A DNA stretch of 64,000 nt from contig JAFUSU010000030.1 in NCBI GenBank assembly GCA_017467515.1, forward strand, positions 215 through 64,214, in the 5' to 3' direction. Source of the stretch: Alphaproteobacteria bacterium. GTDB lineage: Bacteria > Pseudomonadota > Alphaproteobacteria > RF32 > CAG-239. Shown here in pieces: positions 35,958-42,906 of the stretch (position 1 is its first letter; the number at the start of each line of letters is the position of its first letter). The notes beneath the pieces were generated by a model. That model searched no databases and had not been told where the DNA came from. It saw only the letters and a list, made by a program, of their open reading frames with translations. Both the position numbers and the translations under genes were made by a program.

Positions 35958-36077
35958 AAAAAATATTTTTATTCTGCTTGAATATCCCTTCATTTTGTAA
36001 TAGAGTAACAAGTTAAGGGTTGAAAAAAACAGATGAATAAATATTTGAATGATTGATTGAAAGAAGAAGTTAAACAA

Positions 36078-36980
36078 ATGAGTCAAAATAACAGTTTAAT
36101 GGTTTTGAAAAATAGCGCAAATTTGCCTGCGGCGGTTGACGGAGGCGGGCTGATCGCTTATTTCGAAAAAATTAAAAAGTTTCCGATTCTGAGTGATGAT
36201 GAAGAACAGGAATTGTTAATTGATTTTAAACAAAACGGCAATTTACAAGCCGCCCAAAAATTAGTTACTTCTCATTTACGATTGGCGGCCAAAATAGCAA
36301 TGACCTATCGCAATTACGGTTTGCCTCTGGCTGATTTGGTGTCTGAAGCCAATATCGGATTGATGCAGGCTGTTAAAAAATTTGATTTAAGCAAAAAAGT
36401 TCGTTTGGCAACATATGCTATCTGGTGGATAAAAGCCGCTCTGAATGATTTTATATTAAGATCTTGGTCATTGGTTAAAATAGGGACTGTTGCCGCACAA
36501 AAAAAGCTTTTCTATAATTTAAATAGAATTAAAGCGCGTCTTGGTATTTATGAAAATGCGGGACTAACGCCTGAAAACGTTAAAACGATTGCACAAGAAC
36601 TGGTTGTTGATGAAAAAGACGTTATCGAAATGAATCAGAGATTACACACTGATGCATCCTTAAATGTCACAGTCGGGGACGATGACGGACAGGAACGTCA
36701 AAATTTACTGGTTGACAGTCGTGAAAATATTGAAGCTCATTTGGCTAATAAACAGGAAAGCGCTTATAAGCAGAGCATATTAAAAAAATGTCTGGCAAAG
36801 TTAGATGAGCGTGAGCAATATATCATTAAAAGCAGAATGTTAACGGATGAACCTCAGACTTTGGAGGAGTTAGGGATTAAATTTGCTGTCAGTCGGGAGC
36901 GTATCCGTCAAATTGAGAAAAAGGCTTTTGAGCATCTTTCTGTTTTGGTTAAATCGGAATTGGCACAAGAGGCGGCATAA
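36078..36980 (+). CDS. rpoH: RNA polymerase sigma-32 factor
   Basis: RpoH box QKKLFYNL; DLVSEANIGLMQAVKKFD; SRERIRQIE. Confidence 0.92.
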   Translation: MSQNNSLMVLKNSANLPAAVDGGGLIAYFEKIKKFPILSDDEEQELLIDFKQNGNLQAAQKLVTSHLRLAAKIAMTYRNYGLPLADLVSEANIGLMQAVKKFDLSKKVRLATYAIWWIKAALNDFILRSWSLVKIGTVAAQKKLFYNLNRIKARLGIYENAGLTPENVKTIAQELVVDEKDVIEMNQRLHTDASLNVTVGDDDGQERQNLLVDSRENIEAHLANKQESAYKQSILKKCLAKLDEREQYIIKSRMLTDEPQTLEELGIKFAVSRERIRQIEKKAFEHLSVLVKSELAQEAA

Positions 36981-37123: not shown

Positions 37124-37966
37124 ATGCAAGTATACAATACGCTGATAACTAAATTGGCTCAGGCCGGCATTTCTTCCCCGCGAATGGAAGCAAAATTATT
37201 GTTGGCATTCCTCTTAAAAAAAGAAGAAAACAGCATTGATATATTAAACGCTCAGTTAAATCAAGAACAGCAAAATGAATTAGCTTGTTTATTGCACCGC
37301 CGCATCAATAATCGAGAACCTTTAGATAAAATACTAGGACACAAAGGTTTTTACAAATATGATTTCTTTGTAAATTCAGATGTTTTGTCGCCACGACCGG
37401 AAACGGAAATTTTATTGGAAAAAGCATTGTCTTTGGCTGTAAAAGAGGATTTATCGATTCTGGATTTAGGAACCGGAAGCGGATGTATTCTGTTAAGTTT
37501 ACTAAAGGAAAGACCATTAGCAACAGGAGTGGGCGTTGATGTCTCAGCAAAAGCACTTGATGTCGCTCGGAAAAATGCTGAAAATTTAGCCGTATCATCA
37601 CAAGTCAAATGGCTGAACAAAAGTTGGTTTGATGAAGATTTTTTGAGCTTTTTTTCTCGTCCGTTTGATATAATTGTTTCTAATCCCCCATATATTGCCG
37701 ATGCTGAAATTAAAACATTGGATAAGGAAGTAAGAGAATATGACCCGTTGCCTGCTTTGTCAGGAGGTCGGGATGGCTTGGAATCTTACCGTCGAATTGC
37801 AGAAGTAACCCCTTTTTTATTATCAAAAGAAGGTTATATTCTTCTGGAATGCGGACTGGGACAAGCTGATCAGGTTAATGAAATTTTTATTGCACAAGGT
37901 TTAGAGCCGTTTGGTATCTTAAAAGATTTACAAGGTATTGAACGTTGTATAATTTTGAAAAAATAA
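37124..37966 (+). CDS. prmC: Release factor glutamine methyltransferase
   Basis: Motifs EPL..ILG, PRPETE, LDLGTGSGCI, SNPPYI and AL.GG.DGL. Confidence 0.95.
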   Translation: MQVYNTLITKLAQAGISSPRMEAKLLLAFLLKKEENSIDILNAQLNQEQQNELACLLHRRINNREPLDKILGHKGFYKYDFFVNSDVLSPRPETEILLEKALSLAVKEDLSILDLGTGSGCILLSLLKERPLATGVGVDVSAKALDVARKNAENLAVSSQVKWLNKSWFDEDFLSFFSRPFDIIVSNPPYIADAEIKTLDKEVREYDPLPALSGGRDGLESYRRIAEVTPFLLSKEGYILLECGLGQADQVNEIFIAQGLEPFGILKDLQGIERCIILKK

Positions 37967-38103: not shown

Positions 38104-38604
38104 ATGAAAAGAATCAATAACAAGTATAGAAATAATAACGGAAATAACCAGATTTATTCCCTGAACTACAAATTTGACAGTAGCAGTATTGCCGGAAAAA
38201 TAAGCGGAACAGCGTTGGATTTGATTAAAAGATATAATGAATTGGCAAAAGATTCTGCCAGCAATAATGATTATGTATCTGCTGAAATTTTTCGCCAATA
38301 TGCAGAACATTATCGTAAGATTGTGACGGATATTAATGAAAAAAAGAATCAAAATCGCCAGCAATATATGCCCCAAGATAATCAGCAGCAGGGAAATATG
38401 GAAAATAATGATTCTGAGCAGAATATACAAAACAGTGAACAGGTAACCGAGGCAGAAACAACACAGGTAGCTGAGAAAAAATCTTTTACGGTTGTTGAAA
38501 TTTCTCATACGGAAGCAGAAAGTGCAGTTGAAACGCCTGCCGCAAATGATGAGCCTGTCCGTAAAAAAAGAGTGTACCGTCGTCGACAGACCGTCGCAGA
38601 ATAG
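38104..38604 (+). CDS. DUF4167 domain protein
   Basis: Motif FDS...GKI.G.A..L..RY..LA.D......V.AE.F.QYAEHY; usual position between prmC and clpB. Confidence 0.85.
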   Translation: MKRINNKYRNNNGNNQIYSLNYKFDSSSIAGKISGTALDLIKRYNELAKDSASNNDYVSAEIFRQYAEHYRKIVTDINEKKNQNRQQYMPQDNQQQGNMENNDSEQNIQNSEQVTEAETTQVAEKKSFTVVEISHTEAESAVETPAANDEPVRKKRVYRRRQTVAE

Positions 38605-39791: not shown

Positions 39792-39823
39792 CTTGACAAG
39801 ATAAGGGGGGAGCACCTACATAT
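39792..39823 (+). promoter_or_regulatory. Putative sigma32 (RpoH) promoter of clpB
   Basis: CTTGAC-17 nt-CCTACAT, resembling the alphaproteobacterial CTTG...CCTATAT heat-shock consensus. Confidence 0.55.
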
Positions 39824-39845
39824 AAAGTATAGAGAGGTGTTGATA

Positions 39846-42431
39846 ATGAATTTTGATAAATTAACAAGTCGTTCAAAAACGTTGGTCCAAGATGTTGTTG
39901 CTTTAGCATCATCTCGCAAGAATCAGTATATATCACCTGAGCACTTACTCAAGGTTTTCTTGAATGATAATGAACCTACAATTATGGAGCTCATCACTAA
40001 AGCCGGTGGACATCTTGATACGCTTCGTCGCTATACCGATGAAGCCTTGAATAAAATTCCGGCAGTAACGGGAGAAACTGTTCAAAGTTTGATGTCACAA
40101 TCATTTTCTCGAGTAATGAGTGATGCTGAAAATATAGCTGAAAAAAACGGAGATAGTTTTGTTACGCAGGAACGTATTTTACAAGCACTTATGAATAGCG
40201 GAACATCAGCGGCTGAAATATTGAAACAAAGTGGTGTTAATCAAAAAGCGCTTGAACAGGCTGTTAATGAATTTAGAAAAGGCCGTGTGGCAGATAGCGA
40301 AAGTTCAGAAGATAATTTTGAAGCTCTGAGAAAGTTTACGATTGATATGACAGCGCGCGCCAAAGAAGGAAAATTAGATCCTGTCGTCGGTCGAGAACAT
40401 GAAATCCGCAGAACAATCCAAGTATTATCAAGAAGAACAAAAAATAATCCGGTTCTGATTGGCGAACCCGGTGTCGGTAAAACCGCGATTGTTGAAGGTT
40501 TGGCTCTGCGCATCATTAATAATGACGTTCCTGAAAGCTTGCATAACAAAAGATTATTATCATTAGATATGGGTGCTTTAATTGCAGGGGCAAAATATCG
40601 AGGTGAATTTGAAGAGCGACTGAAAGCAGTTTTAAAAGAAGTAGAAGCTTCTGATGGTGAAATTATTTTATTTATTGATGAAATGCACACCATTGTTGGT
40701 GCCGGAGCCAGTGAAGGGTCAATGGATGCTTCTAATTTGCTTAAACCGGCATTGGCTCGAGGTGTTTTGCACTGCTTGGGAGCAACAACATTAAATGAGT
40801 ATCAAAAATATGTGGAAAAAGATGCTGCGCTGGCTCGTCGTTTTCAACCGGTTTATGTCGAAGAACCAAGTGTTGAAGAAACAATATCCATTTTAAGGGG
40901 AATAAAAGACAAGTTCGAATTGCACCACGGAGTTAAAATTTCGGATGGTGCATTGATTGCCGCAGCGACACTGTCTAATCGTTATATCAGTGATAGGTTT
41001 TTACCTGATAAAGCTATTGATCTTATGGATGAAGCTGCCAGCGGGTTGCGTATGGCAATAGATTCTAAACCTGAAGAACTTGATGAATTGGATCGTCGTT
41101 TGATGCAGTTAAAAATTGAGAGAGAAGCTCTCAAAAAGGAAAGTGATGATGCTTCTAAAGCAAGACTGCAGCAAATCAGTTATGAAATTTCAGGTCTGGA
41201 AGGTAAGGCTAAAACATTAGGGGATAAATGGCAGGAAACAAGACAGGGATTAGCTGATTTAACAAATCTGAAAGATCAATTGGATAAAGCGCGTATAGAG
41301 GTTGCAATAGCACAGCGTGACGGTCAATATGAACGGGCAGGAGAGTTACAATATGGCGTCATTCCCGAATTAGAAAATAAAATAAAAGAAATTGAAGAAA
41401 ATTCAGCAAAAGCCCATAATCAAATTGGTGAAAATGTCACGGCCGAAAATATTGCGACAGTCGTTTCAAAATGGACGGGGATTCCGGTAGATAAAATGCT
41501 AGAGGGAGAACGTGAAAAACTCATCCATATGGAAGATTACTTATCGAAACGAGTTATCGGGCAAAAAGAGGCAATTGCCGCCGTATCAAACGCCGTCAGA
41601 AGATCTCGCGCGGGTATTAATGACGGACATCAACCGATAGGTTCGTTTTTATTCTTAGGTCCGACAGGTGTCGGCAAAACAGAATTAAGTAAAGCGGTGG
41701 CTGAATTTCTGTTTAATGATGAAAGTGCTATTCTAAGAATTGATATGTCCGAATATATGGAAAAGCACGCTGTGGCAAGATTAATCGGATCTCCTCCGGG
41801 ATATGTCGGTTATGAAGAAGGAGGCGTTTTGACAGAAGCTGTTCGTAGACGTCCGTATCAGGTTATTTTGTTCGATGAAGTCGAAAAAGCGCATCCGGAT
41901 ATTTTTAATATTTTGCTTCAGGTTTTAGATGACGGACGTTTGACCGATGGTAAGGGCAGAACGGTAGATTTTAAGAATACTCTGATTATTATGACCTCAA
42001 ATTTAGGGTCTGAGATTTTAGCAAATGCCGCAGGTCCTGAAGATAGTAAACAGGTTCGCAGTAAAGTGATGGAAGTCGTTAAATCTGCTTTCCGTCCGGA
42101 GTTTATTAACCGTATTGATGAAATAACATTATTTCATCGATTGGATAAGACAAATATCAAAGATATTGCAAAAATTCAAATTGCGAACATTGAAAAACGA
42201 TTATCCGAGCGTCATATTAAGATAAATGTTAACGATGCAGCCTTTGTTTGGATTGTTAATAACGGGTATGATGCCGTATACGGAGCACGTCCGTTGAAAC
42301 GATTGCTTAAAACCCAATTGGAAAATAAATTGGCTATTAAGATTCTTGATGGAGAAATCGGGGATAATGATACGGCAGATGTTATTGTTTTGAACGGAAC
42401 TCTGGACGTTGTTAAGAGGAAACATACGTAG
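39846..42431 (+). CDS. clpB: Chaperone/disaggregase ClpB
   Basis: Two AAA+ modules ([16 protein letters not shown]), M-domain coiled coil, [10 protein letters not shown] and GYVGYEEGG. Confidence 0.97.
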
Positions 42432-42872
42432 ATGAGTAATATATTATATGAAAAAGCCCTAGAAATAGCCGGTAGTTATGATGTTTCCACGCCAAAGGAT
42501 ACAGTGGTACTATATAGTATCAGCTATTTGCCGACGACAGAAAACCGAGACAAAGCTTTTGCCTATGTTAAAGCACATCCGGAAGCCAAAATGATAGAGG
42601 ATACTGTTTGCGGTAAGGCGTTGATGGATATGGGCGTCGGTTATCACGAAGTAGGATTGACGCAAGATGAAATAGCCCAAATTTGGGCTATTGCTTCCAG
42701 ACGTTTTATTCGAAATGTTAAAGGAAAAGTGATGGCCTTTGTTAACCACGCGCATCCCAAAAGTATCTTTAGAATAGTTGAGTTACCTCTACTGCTTGAA
42801 AATAAGAATGTGACAGAGATTAACGGATGCAACAAATATGAATTTGCAGAAAATTTTAATAAAAAACCTTAG
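42432..42872 (+). CDS. Stand-alone CD38/ADP-ribosyl cyclase (ARC)-fold protein, putative NAD+ glycohydrolase
   Basis: LYS(27-29), IEDT..G..L(55-64), W...SRRF(85-92) and SIF..VE(111-117) follow CD38 LWS, LEDTLLGYL, WKTVSRRF and STFGSVE in order; the ATG follows the clpB TAG directly. Confidence 0.7.
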   Translation: MSNILYEKALEIAGSYDVSTPKDTVVLYSISYLPTTENRDKAFAYVKAHPEAKMIEDTVCGKALMDMGVGYHEVGLTQDEIAQIWAIASRRFIRNVKGKVMAFVNHAHPKSIFRIVELPLLLENKNVTEINGCNKYEFAENFNKKP

Positions 42873-42891
42873 CGATGAGCTAAGGTTTTTT
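42861..42891. terminator. Bidirectional terminator
   Basis: A6-CCTTAGC / GCTAAGG-T6, including the stop codon of the 42432 ORF. Confidence 0.85.
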
Positions 42892-42906
42892 ATCTGAGAA
42901 AATAGG

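Follow-up and report, generated by a model that had tools for sequence, protein, structure and literature searches.

Two 2025 papers show that bacterial enzymes of the ADP-ribosyl cyclase (ARC/CD38) fold act as toxins that deplete NAD(P)+ (PMC12356396, PMC12605009). What, then, is the function of such a domain when it stands alone, directly behind the gene for the disaggregase ClpB? This question is raised by a 146-aa open reading frame in a 64,000-nucleotide stretch of alphaproteobacterial DNA (the window). The original prediction, that it encodes a domesticated cytoplasmic enzyme linked to proteotoxic stress, started from the view that bacterial ARC domains are secreted toxin tips with immunity genes, and named the gene a candidate for an undescribed system. 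The starting view is out of date and the claim of novelty overstated, because a 2025 paper already describes immunity-less 'non-toxic ARC' (Nac) enzymes (Colautti, Kim and Whitney, J Biol Chem 2025; PMC12356396). The window protein is of this known kind; what is new is a cytoplasmic, heat-shock-linked form, set apart from Nac1 as that paper describes it, with an activity and a role that are predicted.

Gene order and expression signals

The ARC gene ends a string of co-directional genes with the following features.

36057-36980, plus strand: rpoH (sigma-32), first regulatory gene of the string; NCBIfam NF005143, 336.6 bits (cut-off 241)
37124-37966, plus strand: prmC (release-factor glutamine methyltransferase); Pfam PrmC_N, MTS
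38104-38604, plus strand: gene for a DUF4167 protein; Pfam PF13763, 63.1 bits
38625-39782, plus strand: gene for a membrane-anchored metallophosphoesterase (MPE; LpxG/YaeI-like); Pfam Metallophos
39792-39823, plus strand: sigma-32 (RpoH)-type promoter motif, CTTGACA-N16-CCTACATAT, upstream of clpB
39837-42431, plus strand: clpB (disaggregase); Pfam Clp_N, AAA, AAA_lid_9, AAA_2, ClpB_D2-small
42414-42422, plus strand: Shine-Dalgarno-like AAGAGGAAA, read from the sequence, within the 3' end of clpB and 12 nt ahead of the ARC ATG
42432-42872, plus strand: gene for the stand-alone ARC/CD38-fold enzyme, 146 aa, ATG start
42854-42899, no strand assigned: hairpin terminator between the ARC gene and a convergent TatA-like gene

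The arrangement at the clpB junction is as originally predicted, with the ARC ATG at the base directly 3' of the clpB stop codon (TAG, 42429-42431), and the gap between the two genes ranges from -8 to +5 nt at the 16 clpB-linked loci with an ARC ORF called. The abutting codons suggest translational coupling, and the protein would thus be produced in response to heat or proteotoxic stress, its gene being co-transcribed with clpB from the RpoH-type promoter in the window's own genome. The ClpB proteins of relatives are 76-88% identical. In the ORF list clpB is called from the GTG at 39837, but by eye its true start is likely the ATG at 39846, behind GAGAGGTG, which better fits the usual ClpB N-terminus, MNFDKLT.

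The sigma-32-like promoter and the shared terminator that had been predicted for this gene pair were both found. The pattern CTTGA-N15-20-CYTAYAT has a sole match in the 64-kb window, at 39792-39823 (chance expectation 0.22; at least one match in 22 of 100 shuffles), and CTTGATTT..CYTAYAT is kept upstream of clpB in related loci, by a strict regular expression in 11 of 21 and as variants recognised by eye in the other loci. A looser sigma-32-type motif lies ahead of five of the seven heat-shock genes examined in the same genome (dnaK, lon, ftsH, dnaJ and clpB), against a background of ∼0.005 per upstream stretch. Genome-wide enrichment was not found either for the promoter motif (131 matches versus 125 in the control) or for its strict form (8 versus 6). 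The core stem of the terminator, CCTTAGC/GCTAAGG (42867-42885), is followed on the plus strand by T6 (42886-42891), and the extended hairpin (42854-42899) has a folding energy of -20.4 kcal/mol (z -6.6). A terminator scan places a hairpin at 42858-42894 on the minus strand; the site lies between convergent genes.

Fold and active site

The predicted structure indicates that the window protein has the ARC/CD38 fold. The AF2 model (pLDDT 91.5, pTM 0.84) gave 30 Foldseek matches at E ≤0.001, all of the ARC family among the matches listed (to rank 30). The best was the Pantoea ARC toxin 9ro8 (E 2.2e-5), and the leading matches, 9ro8, CD38, Aplysia cyclase and 9ouf, spanned E values from 2e-5 to 1e-3. 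VIA-align ranked 9ro8 highest (Z 10.4, with 118 residues aligned at 24% identity), then Aplysia cyclase (8.6), CD157 (8.3) and porcine CD38 (7.6), while the next unrelated folds had Z scores of at most 5.6; TIR domains and nucleoside 2-deoxyribosyltransferases are weak fold neighbours (Z 4.5-5.6). The three animal enzymes named in the original prediction were therefore recovered as structural matches. Profile searches of the PDB agree, with E values of 2.8e-5 for 9ro8, 1e-4 for porcine CD38 and 5.2e-4 for 9ouf (Tac1). The window protein does not reach the gathering score of Pfam PF02267 (Rib_hydrolayse; 11.5 bits versus a cut-off of 25, E 0.19); three of the ten fused relatives found with it do pass (28.5, 29.0 and 26.3 bits).

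The 146 residues are, in their entirety, the domain: residues 1-143 of the model all align to ARC catalytic domains. The same minimal two-lobed core of ∼135-150 aa is found in Tac1 (9OUF), a T7SS LXG toxin of Streptococcus parasanguinis, and in ARCtox PANA_2924 (9RO8), a T6SS PAAR toxin of Pantoea ananatis and the best structural match (PMC12605009). The metazoan enzymes CD38, CD157/BST-1 and Aplysia cyclase (PF02267) have the fold in common (Z 7.6-8.6) and the same order of motifs (LEDT-like, W..S.RF, S.F..vE), but they are ectoenzymes of ∼250 aa, extracellular or membrane-bound, and carry additional helices. The parallels with CD38 motifs that had been drawn from the translation were reproduced by profile alignment, in which 'iEdT' of the family is set against 'LENT' of porcine CD38 (5bnf) and 'W..aSrRF...FV......S.F..vE' against 'WktvSrRFaeaa..vhvmLnGs..dknStFgsvE' of human CD38 (7duo_B). 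The residue numbers given with them (Y28-S29, I-E56-D-T, W85..S89-R-R-F, V.AFVN and S-I-F..V-E117) are all correct.

The key residues of the window protein are Y28, S29, E56, T58, W85, S89 and E117. Their equivalents in other enzymes come from the alignments and from the residues named in section 7 of PMC12356396 and section 6 of PMC12605009. E117 aligns to the Glu of 'vELP' in 9ro8 and 9ouf and of 'svEv' in CD38, and corresponds to E226 of CD38, E573 of Tac1 and E356 of ARCtox; W85 corresponds to W189, W540 and W323, respectively, S89 to S193 of CD38 and S544 of Tac1, and residue 56 to E146, E516 and E299 of the three enzymes. The chain offsets agree with the W323/E356 and W540/E573 named in PMC12605009 and PMC12356396. 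The catalytic and the second Glu are thus common to Tac1, ARCtox and the window protein, and so is the Trp-x3-Ser motif.

E117, whose conservation had been proposed as a check, is invariant in all 90 distinct orthologues (38-71% identical to the window protein), as are W85, S89, S29 and T58. Position 56 is acidic throughout, with 45 Glu and 45 Asp. The first active-site Trp (W125 of CD38, W490 of Tac1, W273 of ARCtox) is absent; by spacing and motif order its equivalent is Tyr28, which is Tyr in 87 orthologues and Phe in 3. The same constellation of residues is found in 37 C-terminal, toxin-like relatives of the subfamily, 33 of which likewise have Tyr at the first-Trp position.

From these positions, NAD+ or NADP+ would occupy the cleft that separates the helical from the beta-sheet lobe, with Trp85, Tyr28 and Ser89 positioning the substrate and Glu117 driving the release of nicotinamide. 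The acidic residue 56 would favour attack by water, so that ADP-ribose (or 2'-phospho-ADP-ribose) would be the main product and cADPR an intermediate or minor one.

Distribution, gene context and relation to Nac enzymes

The ARC gene is near-core and vertically inherited in one family of small-genome gut Alphaproteobacteria (f1). Of the 199 genomes sampled from this family 164 have it, as do 17 of its 22 genera, compared with 6 of 397 other alphaproteobacterial genomes. Stand-alone forms account for 26 of the 147 representative matches scored, and the fused forms are at most ∼40% identical; in the tree the stand-alone clade is monophyletic (support 100/99) and separate from the fused forms, and gene context follows its subclades. 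The dN/dS values are 0.04-0.13 (8 of 17 pairs, those with estimable dS), which indicates purifying selection.

The gene keeps its place in the string while its immediate neighbour changes. The order AsnRS - unknown - rpoH - prmC - DUF4167 recurs in related loci (the prmC cluster, c1, is found in 32 of 40), and at every locus surveyed the ARC gene closes the string prmC-DUF4167-(MPE)-(HAD)-(clpB)-ARC, in the same direction as the genes before it. We find clpB directly upstream in 21 of the 40 loci and, in a genus-stratified sample, in 36 of 60 genomes and 11 of 17 genera. In the remaining 6 genera the ARC gene is kept without clpB ahead of it, and heat-shock co-expression would be missing there too; the upstream neighbour is instead an HAD nucleotidase-like gene, the metallophosphoesterase gene or, in some genera, the DUF4167 gene. 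The proposed linkage to clpB is thus the majority state and not a rule, and nothing in the analysis speaks for the further suggestion that ClpB controls the enzyme.

The window protein does not look like a deployed toxin. As had been proposed, it stands alone and has no leader (Kyte-Doolittle(11) maximum of 1.27 in residues 1-30), and is thus presumably cytoplasmic; N-terminal trafficking or secretion domains (LXG, PAAR, Rhs, CdiA and the like) are absent. Tac1 and ARCtox, by comparison, are C-terminal tips of secreted proteins, have a cognate immunity gene directly downstream and show patchy horizontal spread. No conserved neighbouring immunity gene was found in the related loci surveyed, in agreement with the original prediction: the downstream gene is the convergent TatA-like gene, the downstream neighbours differ among loci, and the sole recurrent co-directional ORF (c10; 6 of 40 loci, 1 of 60 genomes) is absent from the window's own genome. 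In this genome (96.9% complete) neither Imm74 (at E ≤1) nor the T6SS sheath protein TssC/VipB was found. A patchy, horizontally spread distribution is likewise not seen, given the concentration of the gene in one family of the class.

Nac enzymes are ARC homologues whose genes come with neither polymorphic-toxin components nor an apparent immunity gene (PMC12356396), which describes the window protein as well; like Nac1, it has the ARC fold, no delivery components, no immunity gene and a proposed physiological role. Nac1, as described there, differs in that it has a Sec signal peptide, yields roughly equal amounts of cADPr and ADPR and has Ala at the position of the second Glu (section 8), whereas the window protein lacks a leader and has Glu56 at the latter position, where its family has Glu or Asp. 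The signal peptide, the Ala and the cADPr product are given in PMC12356396 as features of Nac1, without being stated to define the Nac class. The neighbourhoods of Nac genes are said in that paper to 'offer no clues' to function, whereas the window gene is near-core in one family, within a housekeeping and heat-shock string. This clade supplies a setting, with its fixed place at the end of the string, an abutting clpB behind an RpoH-type promoter in most genera and a fusion to an HAD nucleotidase-like domain in two genomes.

Predicted role and alternative explanations

We consider it probable that the protein is a leaderless, single-domain ARC/CD38-fold enzyme of the toxin-tip domain family that has become a near-core cytoplasmic Nac-type enzyme, whose likely role, linked to stress, is to trim the NAD(P) pool or to produce an ADPR/cADPR signal. 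It would share descent with the ARC tips of polymorphic toxins and would then have been retained as a vertically inherited cytoplasmic enzyme, perhaps acting with the HAD nucleotidase-like enzyme that is adjacent or fused to it elsewhere in the family; the clade would be a clean case of the domestication of a toxin domain inside bacteria. What is observed here is the fold, the conservation of residues, the distribution, the purifying selection and the order of the genes; substrate, products, heat induction and role are predicted. Stress-linked NAD(P) turnover or ADPR/cADPR signalling is now a testable hypothesis.

One difficulty for such an enzyme lies in its cost. The window's own genome has NadE and an NMNAT-like gene, but Pfam searches of it found neither NAPRTase/NAMPT nor a PncA-type isochorismatase, NadA, NadC or PnuC, and no source of NaMN or NMN. 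Released nicotinamide could therefore not be recycled and cleavage of NAD would be costly; with no immunity gene either, turnover must be slow or restrained. Strongly weakened variants of Tac1 remain toxic in E. coli (PMC12356396, section 7), and thus a complete cytoplasmic ARC enzyme without an inhibitor is hard to square with viability unless it is very slow. How a catalytically complete ARC enzyme is tolerated where inhibitor, PncA and NAPRTase/NAMPT were not found is a question that this locus raises.

A more specific version is that the protein belongs to the heat-shock regulon, is co-translated with ClpB and converts NAD(P)+ to ADPR/cADPR as a stress messenger, or deliberately lowers NAD under proteotoxic stress to brake growth; we put this forward tentatively, as a minority view. 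If true, it would parallel the recruitment of the ARC fold for signalling in animals, and cADPR/ADPR signalling by a non-toxin ARC enzyme would have its first physiological context in bacteria.

Of the competing explanations, the one that survives best, although we think it rather unlikely, is that the enzyme acts on another pyridine nucleotide or is mainly a transferase. It would cleave NMN or NaMN, exchange the base for nicotinic acid or remove nicotinamide from NAD-capped RNA, as a step of nucleotide salvage or catabolism shared with the neighbouring HAD and MPE proteins. CD38-type enzymes carry out base exchange and act on NMN and NAD-RNA, and the incomplete NAD pathway of the genome, with no NaMN/NMN source found, is consistent with such a step. 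An HAD gene lies directly upstream of the ARC gene, often overlapping it, in 10 of 60 genomes, and the MPE gene is directly upstream in 7 of 60, an order seen in genera g6 and g12; two genomes encode a single 369-aa HAD-ARC fusion, the HAD part of which is nearest to the pyrimidine 5'-nucleotidase model TIGR01993 (114.5 and 109.5 bits versus a cut-off of 142.9). Degenerate ARC paralogues also lie two genes from nadE in two congeners. However, HAD could have become adjacent when clpB was lost from an ancestral order MPE-HAD-clpB-ARC, which is still present in genera g10, g15 and g17; the HAD of the fusions is 24% identical to the adjacent type; and the window locus has no adjacent HAD at all. 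The MPE is nearest to the lipid-A enzyme LpxG (93.4 bits; YaeI, 81 bits; both under the NCBIfam cut-offs), and the active-site constellation is that of the toxin relatives that hydrolyse NAD(P)+.

We give little credence to an antibacterial or anti-host NADase effector that would leave the cell by an unrecognised export route and be matched by an unlinked or unrecognised immunity protein. The catalytic set is complete, including the second acid, as in Tac1 and ARCtox (PMC12356396, PMC12605009), and unlike Nac1 the protein is toxin-like by that criterion. Some relatives form the C-terminal part of longer proteins, of which one has PAAR and another SLH repeats. No named family contains the immunity proteins of T6SS-type ARC toxins (PMC12356396, section 8), and searches by homology might therefore overlook one. 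Against this stand the lack of a leader or trafficking domain, of Imm74 and of TssC in the searches above, conserved neighbours that are housekeeping genes only, strong purifying selection, and a near-core, vertically inherited gene in a fixed housekeeping position, the opposite of patchy, mobile polymorphic toxins.

TIR and SIR2 defence NADases are functional analogues of what is predicted for the window protein: they too cleave NAD+ in the bacterial cytoplasm, and can produce signals derived from ADPR. They are of other families and are switched on by infection, and their genes lie in patchy defence loci together with sensors or effectors. TIR and SIR2 effectors are well known to deplete NAD+ in defence, and the window enzyme might similarly be an abortive-infection or stress-suicide NADase, silent until phage or severe proteotoxic stress and then stopping growth. 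The stress-linked expression predicted from the sigma-32-type promoter would suit such a function, and without nicotinamide salvage depletion would be effective. We nevertheless regard this as very improbable, and none of the results points to the abortive infection or dormancy entertained at the outset. The ARC protein matched no family of PADLOC-DB 2.0 (a library from 2023) at E ≤0.1, and its neighbours gave weak, chance-level rows; there is neither a sensor partner nor a defence-island context. Defence genes are typically patchy, but this gene is near-core and, rather than lying in a variable island, has a fixed place in a housekeeping string in 17 genera, and six genera lack the clpB promoter context.

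Least probable of all is a non-catalytic regulator that binds NAD or ADPR: degenerate paralogues in some related genomes, in which Asp or Cys takes the place of E117 and Phe that of W85, and S89 is missing, indicate that the ARC fold is also used without catalysis in these bacteria, but the invariance of the catalytic positions in orthologues down to 38% identity is expected of an enzyme and not of a binder.

Fold and active site of the ARC protein

The 146-aa ORF directly 3′ of clpB (the ARC gene, after the ADP-ribosyl cyclase/CD38 fold) had been proposed to encode a CD38-like protein, and we find that this structural call is right. Searches with the single sequence gave weak matches: Pfam Rib_hydrolayse scored 11.5 bits (cut-off 25), and phmmer against PDB sequences matched 9ro8, the Pantoea T6SS ARC toxin ARCtox, at an E value of 0.009. 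A word-indexed search yielded 74 relatives of 104–164 aa, all named ‘hypothetical protein’ at most, and aligning the window protein with 35 of them gave a profile that matched 9ro8 (2.8e-5), porcine CD38 (1e-4) and 9ouf, the Streptococcus T7SS toxin Tac1 (5.2e-4), with weaker matches to human CD38 (0.03–0.07) and Aplysia cyclase (0.09). The AlphaFold2 model built from the same alignment (pLDDT 91.5, pTM 0.84) had 30 Foldseek matches at E ≤0.001, and among the matches listed, to rank 30, all are ARC-family. An independent all-against-representatives structural search also placed 9ro8 at the top (Z 10.4, 118 residues, rmsd 3.5); Aplysia cyclase (Z 8.6), CD157 (8.3) and porcine CD38 (7.6) scored above a MARTX NADase domain (6.1) and TIR and nucleoside deoxyribosyltransferase folds (4.5–5.6). 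[quoted passage not shown] Because the profile, the model, the structural matches and these C-terminal relatives all point to the same family, the fold assignment is solid.

Among the 147 proteins with a domain hit in the best 150 of the 268 HMMER matches, the ARC domain is C-terminal in 37, N-terminal in 31, internal in 8, stand-alone in 26 and partial in 45. The relatives with an N-terminal domain carry C-terminal extensions without a Pfam domain, except for one PAAR. One metagenome protein of 462 aa (P0093), in the sister group of the stand-alone clade, has ankyrin repeats N-terminal to ARC plus a C-terminal extension; the ankyrin-ARC architecture is more typical of the effectors of host-associated bacteria.

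The residue positions quoted in the original prediction are all correct in the ARC translation. Equivalences were drawn from profile and sequence alignments to PDB entries and from residues named in the consulted portions of PMC12605009 and PMC12356396. In these alignments, W85 corresponds to ARCtox W323, Tac1 W540 and CD38 W189, S89 to Tac1 S544 and CD38 S193, and E117 to ARCtox E356, Tac1 E573 and CD38 E226, while E56 corresponds to CD38 E146 when ‘iEdT’ is set against ‘LENT’. Y28 falls at the expected site of the first Trp (W273/W490/W125), as placed by spacing and motif order only. Across 90 distinct orthologues (from 102 loci plus the window; 38–71% identity to the window protein), E117, W85, S89, S29 and T58 are each invariant (90/90), Y28 is present in 87, and position 56 is Glu in 45 and Asp in 45. 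The same constellation is found in the toxin-like C-terminal relatives, 33 of 37 of which have Tyr at position 28. As judged from its sequence, nothing about the window protein would point to a dead enzyme. We also considered the idea that Glu or Asp at position 56 tracks gene context and rejected it, as both residues are common in clpB-linked loci (34 Glu, 22 Asp).

Linkage to clpB and a predicted heat-shock promoter

The window genes lie on one strand in the order AsnRS, an unknown gene, rpoH, prmC, DUF4167, a membrane metallophosphoesterase gene (MPE, LpxG/YaeI-like), clpB and ARC; rpoH encodes sigma-32 (336.6 bits, cut-off 241). The features at the two ends of clpB are as follows.

39792–39823, 5′ of clpB: CTTGACA-N16-CCTACATAT, matching CTTGA-N15-20-CYTAYAT, a pattern found nowhere else in the window (0.22 expected)
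42429–42431, plus strand: clpB stop codon TAG, with the ARC ATG starting at the very next base
42432–42872, plus strand: ARC ORF of 146 aa with an ATG start, from ORF calling and translation

The reported arrangement, in which the ARC ORF begins at the first base past the clpB TAG and ends in a hairpin, is real. The sequence AAGAGGAAA lies within the clpB 3′ end, 12 nt 5′ of the ARC ATG. The ARC stop codon sits in a hairpin with the stem CCTTAGC/GCTAAGG at 42867–42885, followed by T6 to 42891; the extended hairpin (−20.4 kcal/mol, z −6.6 versus shuffles) was reported on the minus strand by the scan and lies between the ARC gene and a convergent TatA-like gene. The clpB TAG and the ARC ATG (42429–42434) are in one frame with zero spacer, so that a ribosome reading through the TAG would make a ClpB-ARC fusion; the shared frame is not kept in relatives, in which the gap ranges from −8 to +5 nt (16 clpB-linked loci with the ARC ORF called), and is probably incidental. 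Within 39837–39848, the mechanical start of clpB is GTG 39837, but an alternative ATG at 39846, seven bases past GAGAGGTG, is the likelier start and yields the usual ClpB N-terminus, MNFDKLT.

The original prediction had linked the gene to clpB, and this linkage holds in most genera, although not in all. A first sample of 40 loci had clpB directly 5′ of ARC in 21 and no clpB within 6 kb in 19. These loci, titled as gut and rumen Alphaproteobacteria MAGs from representative genomes, had been fetched with the peptide pattern YSISYLPTx[EQK] and are biased by it. We therefore fetched a second sample of 60 hand-picked stretches, with at most four per genus except for 14 from the large genus g2; some coincide with the first 40. 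The immediate 5′ neighbour of ARC is clpB in 36 of these 60, representing 11 of 17 genera; it is a HAD-family nucleotidase-like gene in 10 (g4, g5, g16 and part of g13), MPE in 7 (g6, g12) and DUF4167 in 1, with one more DUF4167 at about 400 nt. None of the four is directly 5′ in the remaining 5, all from g2, where ARC has moved beside carbohydrate genes. Gene orders of the type MPE-HAD-clpB-ARC, seen in g10, g15 and g17, suggest that the ancestral string was prmC-DUF4167-MPE-HAD-clpB-ARC, with the middle genes differentially lost. Within the string, ARC is always final and co-directional, and its 3′ neighbour varies. In the five g2 stretches with ARC outside the prmC-clpB string (L075, L076, L080, L081, L083), the neighbours are a protein with the motif ‘GGIPVCWPRF’ in three, read by eye as glucose-6-phosphate 1-epimerase-like, or a 709-aa gene resembling a 4-alpha-glucanotransferase.

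The proposal of a sigma-32-like promoter 5′ of clpB gains support in silico, chiefly from the position of the motif. CTTGATTT..CYTAYAT is conserved 30–70 nt upstream of clpB in related loci, with 11 of 21 matching a strict regular expression and variants seen by eye in the others. Neither the strict pattern (8 hits versus 6 in the reversed-sequence control) nor the looser TTG-N17-19-CYTA[ACT]AT (131 versus 125) is enriched across the window's own genome. The looser motif does occur within 160 nt upstream of five of seven heat-shock genes (dnaK, lon, ftsH, dnaJ and clpB), a set of our choosing located by sequence motifs, at a chance rate of about 0.005 per upstream stretch; no exact match was found upstream of htpG or rpoH in this genome. 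Only the position of the motif upstream of heat-shock genes is informative, not its genome-wide count. A TTG-N18-CCTATAT-like motif lies 36–72 nt before the starts of dnaK and dnaJ (both contig C27), lon (C26), ftsH (C25) and clpB (39794–39821 in the window), and near matches were seen by eye for groES and htpG. We consider this motif a candidate RpoH promoter consensus for the uncultured lineage; the motif upstream of clpB agrees with the alphaproteobacterial RpoH consensus.

A lineage-core, probable member of the non-toxin ARC class

The ARC gene is vertically inherited, under selection and near-core. In the order-wide sample, it is present in 164 of 199 genomes of family f1 (17 of 22 genera) and missing from the one genome of family f2; in a class-wide sample, any match was found in 6 of 397 genomes outside f1, mostly weak. 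The window's own genome (1.67 Mb, 36 contigs, 96.9% complete) has a single copy. A maximum-likelihood tree of 59 rows (the window, 34 loci and 24 chosen representatives from the HMMER search) unites all f1 sequences and some of the unnamed stand-alone representatives in a single clade (support 100/99), separate from the fused forms. The dN/dS of ARC is 0.044–0.132 in the 8 of 17 pairs with estimable dS, dS being saturated in the other 9, and that of clpB is 0.009–0.035 in 5 of 10 pairs, with dS high throughout. In g2, the gene occurs in 20 of 43 genomes, about half being without it.

Tox-ARC with the immunity family Imm74 was defined by Zhang et al. 2012 (PMC3482391), and the structures of 9RO8 and Tac1 were reported by Martinkus et al. 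2025 (PMC12605009) and Colautti et al. 2025 (PMC12356396). For Tac1, a reported rate of about 12,000 per min is cited in the PMC12605009 discussion. In the sections drawn on here, Colautti et al. also describe immunity-less ‘non-toxic ARC’ (Nac) homologues, to whose function the gene neighbourhoods ‘do not offer clues’. One of them, Nac1, carries a signal peptide, has Ala in place of the second Glu, was purified without an inhibitor and forms both cADPr and ADPR. Compared with Nac1 as described in those sections, the window protein keeps the acid and is leaderless. The ARC gene is a new, presumably cytoplasmic, lineage-core variant of this recently described non-toxin class; its tie to clpB and the heat-shock regulon holds for the majority of genera rather than for all. 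A full-text literature search for ‘ADP-ribosyl cyclase’ with ‘ClpB’ or ‘Alphaproteobacteria’ returned no paper on the ARC gene by title; the f1 clade may already be in a published list of ARC homologues.

Candidate functions

Most likely, the enzyme would be produced together with ClpB under stress and would depend on E117 to cleave NAD(P)+, at a slow or restrained rate, giving ADPR as the product with cADPR as a minor one. The main rival is a role in pyridine-nucleotide salvage or transfer together with the HAD enzyme. A shared pathway is hinted at by the adjacency of the two genes and by a single 369-aa ORF in two g2 genomes (G039, G110), with HAD N-terminal and ARC C-terminal:

L066:1355–2464, plus strand: HAD-ARC fusion ORF, HAD-IA with a complete ARC domain
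L067:1083–2192, minus strand: HAD-ARC fusion ORF, HAD-IA with a complete ARC domain

The ARC motifs of the fusion are intact (YS..E.T..W..S..E), and its HAD part is nearest to the TIGR01993 pyrimidine 5′-nucleotidase (114.5 and 109.5 bits, below the cut-off of 142.9). HAD adjacency arising from loss of clpB could also account for the fusion. The fusion adjoins a gene named by eye as 4-alpha-glucanotransferase-like, away from the clpB string.

In Pfam searches, the window's own genome gave no hits to NadA, NadC, NAPRTase/NAMPT, PncA-type isochorismatase and PnuC, where the positive controls matched in 4–12 of 14 reference genomes; a NAPRTase-family gene is carried by 19 of 61 genomes of the family and by 0 of 4 in the window's genus. 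On this gene content, nicotinamide freed by the enzyme would apparently not be recyclable in the window organism. The NAD pathway of this genome looks truncated: NadE (TIGR00552, 213 bits; L062:1504–2292) and an NMN-adenylyltransferase-like gene (L065:1306–1848, minus strand) are present without a recognised source of pyridine mononucleotide.

A deployed toxin is argued against by several findings: the protein has no leader (maximum KD(11) of 1.27 in the first 30 residues) and no domain besides ARC in structural alignment; neither the 40-locus nor the 60-stretch sample holds a conserved neighbour fit as an immunity gene; neither Imm74 (at E ≤1) nor a T6SS sheath gene (TssC/VipB) was found in the own genome; PADLOC gave no match for the protein; and the distribution is near-core, syntenic and vertical. 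A downstream ORF (c10) considered as an immunity candidate is limited to a single subclade and missing from the own genome. The catalytic set is complete down to the second acid, which is absent from Nac1, and this calls for caution over the non-toxin reading; moreover, even strongly impaired Tac1 variants are described as still toxic in E. coli in the part of PMC12356396 used here. Therefore, the enzyme must be slow, restrained by an unrecognised factor, or acting on another substrate. Two further proposals, control by ClpB and a role in defence, find nothing to support them in this analysis.

Second, degenerate stand-alone ARC copies, of which the own genome has none, occur at L059:1495–1905 (minus strand), L058:1504–1929 (plus) and L056:1498–1977 (plus). 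Two congeners have theirs two genes away from nadE, following an unannotated gene of 147–151 aa; these nadE-side copies have Phe for W85 and have lost S89, and one has Asp for E117. The degenerate copy in a g3 genome has Cys at position 117.
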